This document shows positions 6,234 to 10,631 of a stretch of 64,000 nucleotides of DNA, one piece after another. How positions within the stretch are numbered: the first letter of the stretch is position 1; every line of letters begins with the position of its first letter. Origin of the DNA: Eledone cirrhosa (Eukaryota); NCBI GenBank assembly GCA_964016885.1, contig OZ024740.1:398226001-398290000 (forward strand), in the 5' to 3' direction. A program made the translations under genes and the position numbers. The notes beneath the pieces are model-generated. The model was not told the origin of the DNA. It searched no databases and saw nothing but the letters and a program-made list of their open reading frames with translations.

Positions 6234-6352
6234 TTAATATAGAAATGGTTTCTACAAGACTAGAACTGTTTCATTCGGGAGAAATCATTATACTCTGCTA
6301 TGTATTGAGTACCTTACTTACTGTGGTTACCCCCGATTGAACCCGGGATAAA
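6234..6352 (-). mobile_element. Degenerate copy of the hammerhead-bearing repeat at 9892-10040
   Basis: Shares TCTACA.GACTAGAACTGTTTCATT and ATGTATTGAGTACCTTACTTACTGTGGTTACC. The catalytic core has decayed. Confidence 0.75.
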
Positions 6353-6527
6353 CATATAGTTTCGATGTTATTACATTTCATCAGCAATATATACCTATCT
6401 TCTGGCTTCTCCGGAGAATTGTAAAAGCACATATCGTTATATGCTTTTTCTATGAAAATCAGTAGTGGGCAGACTAATTTGCATAGAACGTGAGTCATTG
6501 TACGCGCCGGTTCAGCGGAAACGATAA

Positions 6528-6898
6528 AAACAAATAACGAAACGAAATTAAATTTCGTTTCGCTTCTAACTCACTTTTGTATGACTGACGCTTAAACTAG
6601 TCCAATATTCCTGTCTGGCTCTCTGGAGAATAGAGGAAGTGTGTTTCCTTGAAAACCCGTATGACTTTAAAACCCGGTTCGTCTGTGTGTTTACATACAG
6701 ACTAGCTGGACACTCACTGCAAAGTGTCTAGTGAAAAGCTCAGTACATGTACATATGTATACATATGTGTATTTATATGCATACTAATACTTCCGTATAC
6801 ATATGTAGATGTACACTTTAACTTAATTGTTTAAGCGTCAGTCATACAAAAGTGAGTTAGAAGCGAAACGAAATTTAATTTCGTTTCGTTATTTGTTT
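6528..6898. repeat. Inverted repeat with ~70-bp arms (6528-6597 / 6829-6898)
   Basis: AAACAAATAACGAAACG...GACGCTTAAAC and its reverse complement. Confidence 0.9.
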
Positions 6899-7105
6899 AT
6901 ATATATATATATATATATATATATATATATGTGTGTGTGTGTGTATATATGTATATGTATATATATATATATATATATATGTATATGTATATATATATAT
7001 GTATATATATATATGTATATATATATATATATATATATATATATATATATATATATATATATATATATATATATATATATATATATATATATATATATAT
7101 ATATA
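6899..7105. repeat. (TA)n microsatellite
   Basis: Directly visible. Confidence 0.95.
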
Positions 7106-7278
7106 AAATATAATATGTTGAGAAGGTAACACACCAGAGAGAGATATATAGTGCGTTATCAATAATACAGGGAAAAAACTACCAGTGTATGGAATCTACA
7201 ACCTATGAAAGGCAGACTATAGACACGATAATTAAAAATATAAATTAAAGCGTAAATAAATACCTTTATAACTATATA

Positions 7279-7358
7279 ACACACGTACAAATCCAAAGAT
7301 ATGTTTCACAAAAAAATTGTTGAAAGAAATGGTCTAGTCTCGGTTCATCAGCGTGTGT
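7279..7358 (-). ncRNA. Type I hammerhead ribozyme, mirror copy in the left arm
   Basis: Reverse complement of 7739-7818. Confidence 0.75.
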
Positions 7359-7738
7359 AAGGCCATACATTTCAGACAACACTAAGAGAATTTTACAATT
7401 GACTGTCCAGCTACACGTGGGAGAGAGAAGTCACAGCGTGTTTAAGGGCAGTGAACCAGTGGCCTCTGAGAGACGAACTGTTAGAAAGGGCAGCCCAAAG
7501 CCACTCAGAGAAGTGTGCTCAACCAAACAGAGATAGCAAAGACTGTTGTTAGGAGCGAATTATCACGATAAATTAACGGAGGCATTCTCTGAGTGGCTTT
7601 GGGCTGCCCTTTTTAGCAGTTCGTCTCTCAGAGGCCACTGGTTCACTGCCCTTAAACACGCTGTGACTTCTCTCTCCCACGTGTAGCTGGACAGTCAATT
7701 GTAAAATTCTCTTAGTGTTGTCTGAAATGTATGGCCTT

Positions 7739-7818
7739 ACACACGCTGATGAACCGAGACTAGACCATTTCTTTCAACAATTTTTTTGTGAAACATATCT
7801 TTGGATTTGTACGTGTGT
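7739..7818 (+). ncRNA. Type I hammerhead ribozyme (candidate)
   Basis: Stem I ACACACG/CGTGTGT; core CTGATGA at 7746-7752; GAAA at 7790-7793; stem III ACATATC/GATTTGT; cleavage triplet GTA at 7809-7811. Stem II is weak (AC/GT) with a long loop. Confidence 0.75.
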
Positions 7819-7994
7819 TATATAGTTATAAAGGTATTTATTTACGCTTTAATTTATATTTTTAATTATCGTGTCTATAGTCTGCCTTTCATAGGTTGTA
7901 GATTCCATACACTGGTGGTTTTTTCCCTGTATTATTGATAACGCACTATATATCTCTCTCTGGTGTGTTACCTTCTCAACATTTATATATACAT

Positions 7995-8299
7995 ATATAA
8001 AGAAAAAGGGATGAAATCGAGAATGCAACTGAAGTCTTATTTTTTTTTAAAATATATATATTTATTTGGTTCCTTTACCGGTTTCGCAGTTCTTCTGCTT
8101 TTCAAAAGGTGAGTTGAGATGGAGGGTCTGTGGTTTTTCTCACATCTGGATGTGAGAAAAACCACAGACCCTCCATCTCAACTCACCTTTTGAAAAGCAG
8201 AAGAACTGCGAAACCGGTAAAGGAACCAAATAAATATATATATTTTTAAAAAAAATAAGACTTCAGTTGCATTCTCGATTTCATCCCTTTTTCTTTATA
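7995..8299. repeat. Near-perfect palindrome with ~150-bp arms and a 2-nt centre (8147-8148), containing a degenerate minimal hammerhead
   Basis: Centre reads CACATC-TG-GATGTG. 8186-8223 reads CCTT-TTGAAAA-GCAG(aagaa)CTGC-GAAACCGGTA-AAGG. Confidence 0.85.
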
Positions 8300-8795
8300 C
8301 TTCCACTCGTGTAGGACACCTCGGTTATTTTTCATTTTGTAAAAAAAACCTCACTTTCTAAAATATACATATATATATACATATATATATATATATATAC
8401 ATATACATATATATATATACATATACATATATATACACACACACACATATATATATATATATATATATATATATATATATATAACGAAGGAAGTGTGGTA
8501 AGGAACCATATGGATCAAAACGCACCAGAGTACTAGTCCAGAAATAGCCGTCGAAACGGCTTGAGCTCTGCCGTCGGGATCAAACTTTTTCCTATATATA
8601 TATATATATATATATATATATATATATATATATATATATATATATATATATATATATATATATATATATATATATATATATATATACATACATACATACA
8701 TACATACATACATATATATATATATATATATATATATGTATGTAGGTATGTATGTATGTATGTATATATATATATATATATATATATATATATAA

Positions 8796-8917
8796 GTGAA
8801 GGCGTGTGGCTGAGTGGTTAGAGAATTGGATTCGCAATCGTAAGGTTGTGAGTTCGATTCCTGGACCAGACGATGCGTTATGTCCTTGGGCAAGACACTT
8901 TATTTCACATTGCTCCT
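8796..8917 (+). mobile_element. CORE-type SINE family A, 3'-truncated
   Basis: TGGCTGAGTGG, GAGTTCGATTCC and CCTTGGGCAAGACACTTTA. Confidence 0.85.
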
Positions 8918-9891
8918 TCTACCTGGAGTTGCGACCGATAGATAGTATTAGCAATTGGAAAGACAAACGGAAACATTGTTCCCTCGGTCCAATTTGACGA
9001 AAGTCGATCGTGCCTTTAAAAATATATATATATATAAATATAAAAGCTCGTAGAGCAAATATTTATTATAAGTACAGATTAAAGTTGAAGCCATGAATTG
9101 CTGGTTTCACCCTTTTACGAGATCTTCTGAAAAGGGTGAAAGCAGTGATTCTTTGCTTAAATTTAATATGTACTTATAATATATGTATATATATACATAC
9201 ATATATATATATATATATATATATATATATATATATATATAGGCATATAAACAGAAAGAACGGAGTGGAGAGAGAGGAGACGGAAATGGGGAGGGTAGGA
9301 GCGGGGGAAGTGAAAGATTTGAGTGGATAATTTGATTTCAAATTACCAAAAAATACTATTTATATCATTTGACAAGTTCAAATGTTTATATATATATACA
9401 TATATATATATATATATATATATATATGTATATATATATGTATATGTATATATATACATATATATACATACATATATATATATATATATATATATATATA
9501 CATATATATATAAATATATATATATATATATATATATATATATACATATATATACACATATATATATATATACATATATATATATATACATATATATATA
9601 TATGGAGCGGGTGGTGTGAATAGTGAATAATCACTAATTATTGCTTTTCATGCACTTTATGCCCTCACTTAATGTTTGTTTTATTCCATCATCGTTTTTC
9701 TTAAATTCATATTATTTATATATTTATTTAAATACAAGGGCTATAGAACTTATAGACGTTATTTTTACCTATATATATATATATATATATATATATATAT
9801 ATATATATATATATATATATATATATATATATATATATGTATATATATATACATATATATGTATATATATATACATATATATATATATAGT

Positions 9892-10040
9892 TTTAATATA
9901 GATGAGATTCTACAGGACTAGAACTGTTTCATTCTTTAGAAATCATCAGGAATCTCAGTTCTAGTCCTGTAGAATCTCATCTATATTAAAACTTTTATTC
10001 TCTGCAATGTATTGAGTACCTTACTTACTGTGGTTACCTC
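9892..10040 (-). mobile_element. Short foldback repeat (arms 9891-9926 / 9956-9991) carrying a hammerhead
   Basis: Inverted arms TTTTAATATAGATGAGATTCTACAGGACTAGAACTG. Paralog at 6234. Confidence 0.75.
9904..9956 (-). ncRNA. Type I hammerhead ribozyme (candidate)
   Basis: Minus strand reads GAGATTC-CTGATGA-tTTCTaaAGAAt-GAAACAG-ttctagtc-CTGTA-GAATCTC: 7-bp stem I, 4-bp stem III and a GUA triplet. The pair closing stem II is a U-U mismatch. Confidence 0.7.
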
Positions 10041-10121
10041 CGATTCAACCCGGAATAACGTATATATATATATATATATATATATATATATATATATATA
10101 TATATATATATATATGTATAT

Positions 10122-10631
10122 ATATGAAAAAGTTTGTCCTCATCAGTGGCCTTCCAACCGTCGTAGGCATTTCGTCGCATTAAAGGCCATATACCTCAGG
10201 TTGGTGCGAGCAACGACTAAAAAAAGTCGTTGGGACACGTAAATAAAGGGGACGCGAGGGTAAACAAACAAAATGGTTTAAGCAACAGAAAGTGATGAAG
10301 AAGAAAGAAACAAGTCCCAGATTTCTATGAAATTAGACCTGTGCGAAATTCCTTCCTTGCTCACATTTCAACCAGGTTTGATGGTCTTTATTCTCTCGTT
10401 CACGATTCCACCGAATTTCTATTCATAGAAATCTGGGACTTGTTTCTTTCTTCTTCATCACTTTCTGTTGCTTAAACCATTTTGCTTGTTTACCCTAGCG
10501 TCCCCTTTATTTACGTGTCCCAACGACTTTTTTTAGCCGTTGCTCGCACCAACCTGAGGTATATGGCCTTTAATGCGACGAAATGCCTACGACGGTTGGA
10601 AGGCCACTGATGAGGACAAACTTTTTCATAT
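10122..10631. mobile_element. Foldback element with ~210-bp arms (10122-10331 / 10422-10631) inside (TA)n
   Basis: Reverse-complement arms with few mismatches. Each arm carries CTGATGA near its outer end. Confidence 0.85.

Follow-up and report, generated by a model that had tools for sequence, protein, structure and literature searches.

The window, a 64,000-nt stretch of the 3.0-Gb genome of Eledone cirrhosa (G000:C1:398226001-398290000), contains a cluster of repeats set in (TA)n tracts. Between positions 6232 and 10668 lie eight insertions of seven repeat families (A, B, C, E, F, G and H), each mapped onto real copies of its family. We assign a probability of about 0.78 to the interpretation that these insertions are the likely work of (TA)n-targeting reverse transcriptase (RT)-endonucleases of Penelope-like elements (PLEs) and that family A carries a predicted type-SGC hammerhead ribozyme, in which the core blocks follow in the order cleavage site (S), GAAA (G) and CUGAUGA (C). 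The foldback system itself is known; what is new is the predicted SGC ribozyme in a high-copy animal retroelement.

The cluster opens with copy 1 of family C (6232-6356), an inverted hammerhead end with a truncated core and a forward tail of ~70 nt, and with a family E insertion (6357-6902; reverse-strand arm 6357-6597, forward-strand arm 6594-6902). Family B forms a foldback at 7104-7988. The family F foldback (7996-8361) represents an autonomous PLE truncated to its 3' end; its tail lies at 8300-8361. Family G (8486-8595) is represented by an inverted tail piece and a short forward 3' end, and a family H foldback occupies about 9020-9195. Copy 2 of family C (9891-10060) has a complete type I hammerhead on the reverse strand (9957-9903), followed by a forward part and a tail. 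The family A insertion (10122-10668) joins an inverted, 5'-truncated copy (reverse strand, 10122-10331) to a forward copy (10333-10627) with a 40-50-nt tail ending in (TA)n.

TA tracts adjoin every inverted repeat of the cluster. The two arms are 99.2% alike at 7115-7982, 98.5% at 10126-10627, 99.3% at 7996-8299 and 100% over the 69-nt arms at 6528-6897; further inverted repeats are seen at 9890-9992 and 9066-9179. Most insertions have a one-sided tail, and the outer ends of a foldback are the 3' ends of both of its outward-pointing copies. The initial annotation, which described a cluster of unrelated foldbacks nested in (TA)n, was correct in that all the inverted repeats it listed exist and adjoin TA runs. 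Its units were drawn too small, the repeat at 6528-6898 being part of the family E insertion and a hairpin at 9106-9141 part of the family H foldback, and the family G member was missing from its list. The elements do fall into seven families, but those at 6232-6356 and 9891-10060 belong to one and the same family.

Hammerhead motifs are complete in the window copies of A, B and F and in the second copy of C; they are cut or split in the first copy of C and in E, G and H. The earlier statement that most elements carry CUGANGA and GAAA motifs holds in part: a literal CUGANGA lies inside three of the six listed spans (7116-7982, 9891-9991 and 10122-10631) and just outside that at 6528-6898, at 6384, while the core at 7995-8299 is a U3-A8 variant and that of the family at 9106 a U4A-like one. 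Our own type I descriptor gave four matches in 6150-10700, where 200 shuffles averaged 0.015 (0/200 reached four); one of the four, at 6384, is the chance completion of a split motif, and the descriptor missed the mutated window copies of family B. A scan of the window against Rfam at E<=1 returned no hammerhead among 146 matches.

The hammerheads of B, C and E fit type I. That of family B has a long loop II and occurs in both arms (forward strand 7739-7818; reverse-strand core at 7351), with one mismatch in stem II in the window copies. The family E hammerhead is minimal, with a palindromic loop III, and is split between the arms of the window copy. Family F carries a minimal hammerhead with a U3-A8 core in both arms (forward strand 8186-8223), longer copies of family G a type I hammerhead whose core is U3-A8 and whose stem II is long, and longer copies of family H a hammerhead-like fold with a predicted U4A-like core. 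The U3-A8 core is natural and active according to the available text of PMC3088659. The flanks of loci L002-L239 (99 distinct matches) contain a dozen or more additional families of type I hammerheads, many of them having a palindromic loop III.

The cluster is dense, yet foldbacks of its kind are common in the genome. A sample of forty 10-kb stretches, placed at round coordinates (400 kb), yielded 39 inverted repeats, a few of them overlapping. With this detector the cluster yields 4 over its 4.55 kb, and TA tracts account for 18% of its bases compared with 6%. Of the 39 foldbacks, 18 lie directly beside (TA)3 (background 10%), and 20 contain loose hammerhead core halves, compared with 14% per 250 nt in a background that is not length-matched. 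At roughly one per 10 kb of the sample, foldbacks might, wherever they are transcribed, contribute much double-stranded RNA. A first look gave candidate numbers, which are not copy numbers, of 2,917 for A, 2,595 for B, 1,697 for C, 1,677 for E, 64 for F, 1,273 for G and 2,814 for H.

Ends and tandem units of the insertions

Families A, B and E are built of tandem units of 628, 541 and 469 nt, whose longest ATG frames reach 52, 26 and 51 aa; tblastn of the three against four PLE proteins gave no match. Tandem runs are present at 9 of 28 loci for A, 14 of 18 for B and 9 of 13 for E, and family C resembles a short unit at two loci. Non-coding tandem repeats of this kind, with one hammerhead per unit, are known as non-LTR (non-long-terminal-repeat) retrozymes (PMC7229834, in its accessible part). 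The type I hammerhead that also defines retrozymes is not the one found in family A, which would work like a retrozyme but is not a typical member.

The 3' ends of A, B and E cluster at two fixed sites a tail apart. At these sites, among loci that are top-scoring and partly overlapping matches and not random samples, TA adjoins 16/16 and 14/15 of the ends in family A, 9/10 and 14/14 in B, and 11/11 and 10/10 in E. Over all 3' ends the fractions are 31/46, 23/28 and 23/24 (background 13%); the ends outside the two sites (15/46, 4/28 and 3/24) are reference-edge artefacts, one small cluster or singletons. End clusters at the reference edges themselves (A 624, B 541, F 599) are artefacts, the second end of family F is cut by its reference, and the counts for family G were dropped because its reference contained an inverted part. 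The 5' ends are scattered and adjoin TA only in 15/44 (A), 4/28 (B) and 3/26 (E) cases, against the same 13% background. Both orientations are found at 13 of 28 A loci and 11 of 18 B loci, and the random 5' truncation and inverted or partial-tandem structure of PLE-type insertion are present. Families A, B and E directly show PLE ends, which is footprint evidence that PLE enzymes insert retrozyme-like repeats. The hallmark of DNA transposons and miniature inverted-repeat transposable elements (MITEs), a pair of fixed terminal inverted repeats enclosing each copy, is absent.

Fixed, TA-adjoining 3' ends and the hammerhead folds support the earlier idea of a shared mechanism that targets hammerhead-bearing RNAs to (TA)n. 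These RNAs were thought to be ribozyme-terminated, whereas the insertion ends sit at fixed sites downstream of the ribozyme. They were also thought to be short, whereas one foldback, that of family F, is the end of an autonomous element.

As far as the available text of PMC8557442 goes, endonuclease-containing (EN+) PLEs of the Hydra and Neptune/Nematis types share with the cluster the tandem and inverted insertions, one-sided tail, 5' truncation, (TA)n bias and type I hammerheads near the 3' end; its supplement (Craig supplement) includes Hydra and Naiad families of octopus that prefer (TA)n. Unlike the PLEs described there, most members in the window are non-coding derivatives, U3-A8 and U4A-like cores occur, and tails measure ~40-90 nt compared with 30-40 nt. 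Animal non-LTR retrozymes, in the accessible parts of PMC7229834 and 10.64898/2026.07.22.740005, are likewise non-coding tandem repeats with one hammerhead per unit, a GC content of 37-45% and coexisting PLEs. Their described units of 150-450 nt are shorter than the 469-628 nt found here, and their hammerheads are type I and not SGC as in family A. Those papers, in the same parts, argue from co-occurrence and from the phylogeny of pseudo-LTRs (pLTRs), whereas the present insertions show PLE ends directly. Since tandem and inverted PLE insertion, the tail, (TA)n bias, hammerheads and retrozymes were already documented, the foldback system that the initial annotation thought might be undescribed is real but known.

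The predicted hammerhead of family A

The predicted hammerhead of family A lies at 10549-10614 on the forward strand, with block S at 10558-10569, block G at 10579-10587 and block C at 10601-10614. The core is intact, and the predicted cut falls after 10563. An extended stem III helix pairs 10549-10554 with 10594-10599 and encloses a loop resembling a kink-turn (K-turn; 10555-10593), in which GA at 10556-10557 faces a 3-nt bulge (10588-10590) and GA at 10591-10592. The inverted arm holds a mirror SGC hammerhead on the reverse strand (10139-10204), and the search pattern matches the window at +10607 and -10146. Folding the motif as type I, II or III gave no consistent structure by eye, nor was a consistent helix found by eye that joins the free sides of stems I and II. 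By block order and core we assign the motif to the SGC permutation; that it cleaves is a prediction.

Two exact SGC patterns match the genome 6,996 and 4,298 times, 11,294 in all (a few being inversion junctions), with 0 + 0 matches in controls. A pattern for an older SGC family gave 86 matches (1 in the control), and the 400-kb sample contains 3 (0 when reversed). At G000:C1:43918152-43924210 nine SGC motifs spaced by ~750 nt mark a relative of family A arranged as a long tandem array, and a separate family of decaying SGC-type units makes up a short tandem array at L221:1494-1949 and beyond.

A search with the core-spacing anchor alone yielded 76 distinct variants, reduced to 40 representatives, of which 20 were aligned without gaps. 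Hammerhead positions are given here in the customary numbering. Position 17 is A, C or U in 40/40 variants (H was imposed), and N7 varies freely. In the 20 aligned variants 89.7% of 360 cells are paired in the SGC fold and double-sided changes occur in 15 of 18 predicted pairs. Their covariation score is 0.757, compared with 0.304 when shuffled (0/500) and <=0.185 when the fold is slid, but the aligned variants were hand-picked from the 40 and are related, and the shuffle count should not be read as a probability. Covariation is seen in stems I, II and III, of which stem II is a single pair and stem III was partly imposed by the patterns; no search imposed helix I, the outer helix or the 10.1-11.1 pair. 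The bulged strand of the K-turn-like loop has G in 39/40 and A in 40/40 variants, the other strand G in 34/40 and A in 38/40. The predicted loop agrees with the K-turn definition in the available text of PMC2952850: a 3-nt bulge, tandem G-A pairs and a C-stem starting with C-G (imposed for the older family). Such a loop would explain how a link of only 1-2 nt between the extended stem III and helix I reaches the latter.

Several points weigh against a cleaving SGC fold. Chimeric and many decayed rows were left out of the alignment, and the 20 variants amount to about 6-8 related lineages, whose kinship inflates covariation. Two other measures are less extreme than the covariation score, the number of pairs with double changes (21/500) and that of further pair types (87/500). 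Pairing in stem III and the G-A pairs of the K-turn were partly built into the search patterns. Stem II is one Watson-Crick pair in 35 of the 40 variants, and in the pseudoknot-free minimum-energy fold of the window copy helix I forms and stem III does not.

Described type-SGC hammerheads cleave in vitro, and according to the accessible part of PMC10085705 no such RNA had been found in the genomes of known organisms; the available supplement of that paper has no entry for octopus, Mollusca, Eukaryota, Metazoa or cephalopod. Family A shares with them the S-G-C order, all core nucleotides, the covariation of stems I and III and a short link between stems I and II. It differs in its one-pair stem II, in a linker between stems I and II that is longer than theirs, and in the K-turn-like extension. 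In that text SGC is known only from metatranscriptomes and CSG, a second block order, from metagenomes, whereas family A is a retroelement with more than 11,000 copies in an animal genome. One paper from 2026 mentions the permutations no more than briefly in its available part (PMC13725137). Our literature search, which left subscription journals mostly outside its coverage, found no paper that connects non-circular hammerheads to PLEs, to Naiads or to animal genomes. If the SGC fold cleaves, non-circularly permuted hammerheads move from rare environmental contigs to animal genomes at high copy. Many diverged natural variants would then be at hand for structural work, in which the fit to the crystal structure was left open and the K-turn offers a testable answer.

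Candidate enzymes, mechanism and alternatives

Upstream, family F runs on into a frame of 726 aa that carries RT plus, at its C-terminus, a GIY-YIG domain (Pfam RVT_1 and GIY-YIG). This parent has, read by eye, the DKG motif and CX2-5CxxC linker of the Neptune/Nematis type, and its frame looks intact at locus L162:2150-4327. A young, intact Hydra-type element (loci L092/L093) encodes a 714-aa open reading frame (ORF) with RWK, DKT and CxCX5C motifs and a C-terminal endonuclease; its arms match by up to 99.9%, and it also carries a type I hammerhead, a tail and (TA)n. By motif criteria it is placed in the Hydra clade, and Pfam gave no match to it. Hydra-type copies are laid out like the foldbacks of the cluster, and the PLEs of this genome resemble octopus families in the Craig supplement. 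A second Hydra-type frame, of 722 aa with a low-complexity insert, is found at locus L163:1065-3230.

Outside the cluster, an old Hydra-type PLE remnant at 20080-20826 combines an inverted 3' end beside (TA)n with a forward GIY-YIG fragment (20437-20826). The endonuclease fragment is 40% identical to that of the 714-aa element, and Pfam returned one weak unrelated match only for the frame. The initial annotation pointed to this remnant, at 20470, when it proposed a PLE-type mobilising enzyme. The remnant itself is too decayed to be the mobiliser; it belongs to a decayed family, in which the nearest of its other copies share about 50-67% identity with it and many contain stops. The underlying idea that a PLE-type RT/GIY-YIG enzyme is the likely mobiliser is supported by the PLE ends and by the PLE ORFs in the genome. 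Families B, C and G, the 20470 remnant and the 714-aa element have a short tail motif in common, which was drawn after the sequences had been seen. Families B, C, G and H were probably mobilised by a Hydra-type enzyme, the link of H being judged by eye.

For family A we consider a Naiad-type enzyme the likely mobiliser, by analogy. In the accessible part of PMC8557442 Naiads have no canonical hammerheads; eight are marked as carrying a 'HHR_half_core', among them one octopus and one squid family. As in family A, these core halves lie ~35 nt apart in reverse order and the elements favour (TA)n; unlike Naiads, family A encodes no protein. Among 83 places in the Craig supplement, where two of the four core spellings were looked up (CTGATGA, 60 of 62 places, and CTGACGA, 23 of 23), we recognised by eye the SGC order at seven, three of them near-identical, and the CSG order at five; most of the remaining places are ORFs or canonical tables. 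Some of these places have no visible header and were assigned by their position among Naiad records. Two octopus Naiads, identified by adjoining headers, show by eye the SGC layout with a K-turn-like loop and a 2-nt link. The stem II base is paired in the CSG places, in one of them after a 1-nt insertion.

A point against our interpretation is the mismatched stem II base in all seven published SGC places. A back-translated motif search of the genome for an intact Naiad gave two matches, one a decayed remnant with no clean motif and one apparently due to chance. No end shared between family A and a Naiad ORF turned up in the genome, where this decayed remnant is all that the motif search recovered of Naiads, and four loci around outlying SGC variants contain no Naiad ORF; the link to Naiads is structural only. 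We find it fairly probable that Naiads carry non-circularly permuted hammerheads (SGC in corals, cephalopods and others, CSG in nematodes), and that this genome hosts a Naiad-dependent retrozyme superfamily of more than 11,000 K-turn-braced SGC copies, the first in the genome of a known organism. If true, this would explain the half-core puzzle and bear on the question, raised by the Naiad authors, of how these elements thrive without canonical hammerheads.

In the mechanism we propose, a PLE enzyme would cut both DNA strands within (TA)n, each cut strand would prime complementary DNA (cDNA) from either of two internal starting points, and the two prematurely ended cDNAs would be joined head to head to form a foldback. 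Each insertion would keep TA at its edges, and later ones would therefore land beside it. According to the available text of PMC11167929, both strands are cut and extended by a PLE protein in purified form, which initiates reverse transcription at two positions that flank the tail. Another point against our interpretation is that the two arms of B share just one private variant, and those of A none. In family A, blocks S, G and C would fold in cis as a double pseudoknot, the K-turn would turn the extended stem III round towards stem I, and cleavage of tandem transcripts would yield RNAs of unit length, which could circularise. Circular permutation relates SGC to CSG, and tandem pLTRs could convert the one into the other.

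Cleavage by dimers of minimal hammerheads is a general idea. One may accept the PLE origin and suppose that in family A cleavage never takes place within one unit and requires tandem units to swap strands, with C from one of them joining S and G from the next in a CSG-order dimer. The 1-2-nt link, the tandem arrangement at 9 of 28 loci and the CSG order among published Naiads speak for this; the K-turn-like loop provides a route in cis, some described SGC ribozymes have zero-length links (PMC10085705, accessible part), and octopus Naiads listed without a pLTR in the available supplement show the identical layout. We regard strand swapping as the sole route as unlikely. More doubtful still is that the motif is a conserved non-catalytic RNA structure, such as a protein-binding site, derived from a hammerhead ancestor. 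The one-pair stem II and the competing nested fold would suit such a structure, as would the report, in the available text of PMC11167929, that hammerhead cleavage is dispensable for PLE insertion in vitro, which also counts against our own interpretation. Natural hammerheads with a one-pair stem II exist, however (PMC3088659, accessible part), and the core nucleotides, A15.1-U16.1 and the 10.1-11.1 pair (four pair types) are kept across diverged families, the invariance of the core being partly by construction, as it formed part of the search anchor.

The two remaining explanations concern the foldbacks as a whole, and we hold both to be very improbable. Long inverted termini adjoining TA recall non-autonomous DNA transposons of the MITE or Foldback type inserting at TA with terminal inverted repeats, the outcome that the initial annotation named as contrary to its proposal. 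Arm lengths vary, however, many loci have one orientation only, units stand head to tail, the tail makes the ends asymmetric, and family F runs into an RT ORF. Fold-back artefacts of long reads or assembly could likewise yield inverted repeats, and no contig from four public runs spans the whole family A insertion, although these give short pieces only and are uninformative. The arms are not identical to each other (1-3 differing sites), they stop on either side at positions specific to the family, and their layout is that published for PLEs, all of which argues for real insertions.

Other repeats in the window

Copies of a tRNA-like short interspersed nuclear element lie within TA/TG tracts at 4432-4580, 5062-5380, 8796-8916 (inside the cluster), 14001-14322 and 28365-28504. 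Further imperfect inverted repeats are present at 3340-3475, 12287-12376 and 31197-31410, the first and last of which had no match among the loci compared. An abundant short repeat occurs at 25587-25775, 29036-29315, 32529-32721, 33877-34074 and 38256-38455; its copy at 29081-29233 is a foldback without hammerhead core or TA flank.

An intact 1,153-aa frame on the reverse strand (21282-24743) has endonuclease-like and RT-like parts typical of a long interspersed nuclear element (LINE), and a partial copy 80% identical to it occupies 1-939. A second, frameshifted LINE-like element with an RT and a C-terminal Cys/His and nuclease-like part lies on the forward strand at 14712-16702; both labels were given by eye. 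A higher-order tandem repeat of 42-45 nt, composed of GAT, GGT and GTT triplets, extends over 34848-36457, and the last 25 kb of the window (38738-64000) are a 22-nt satellite array of ~1,149 copies.

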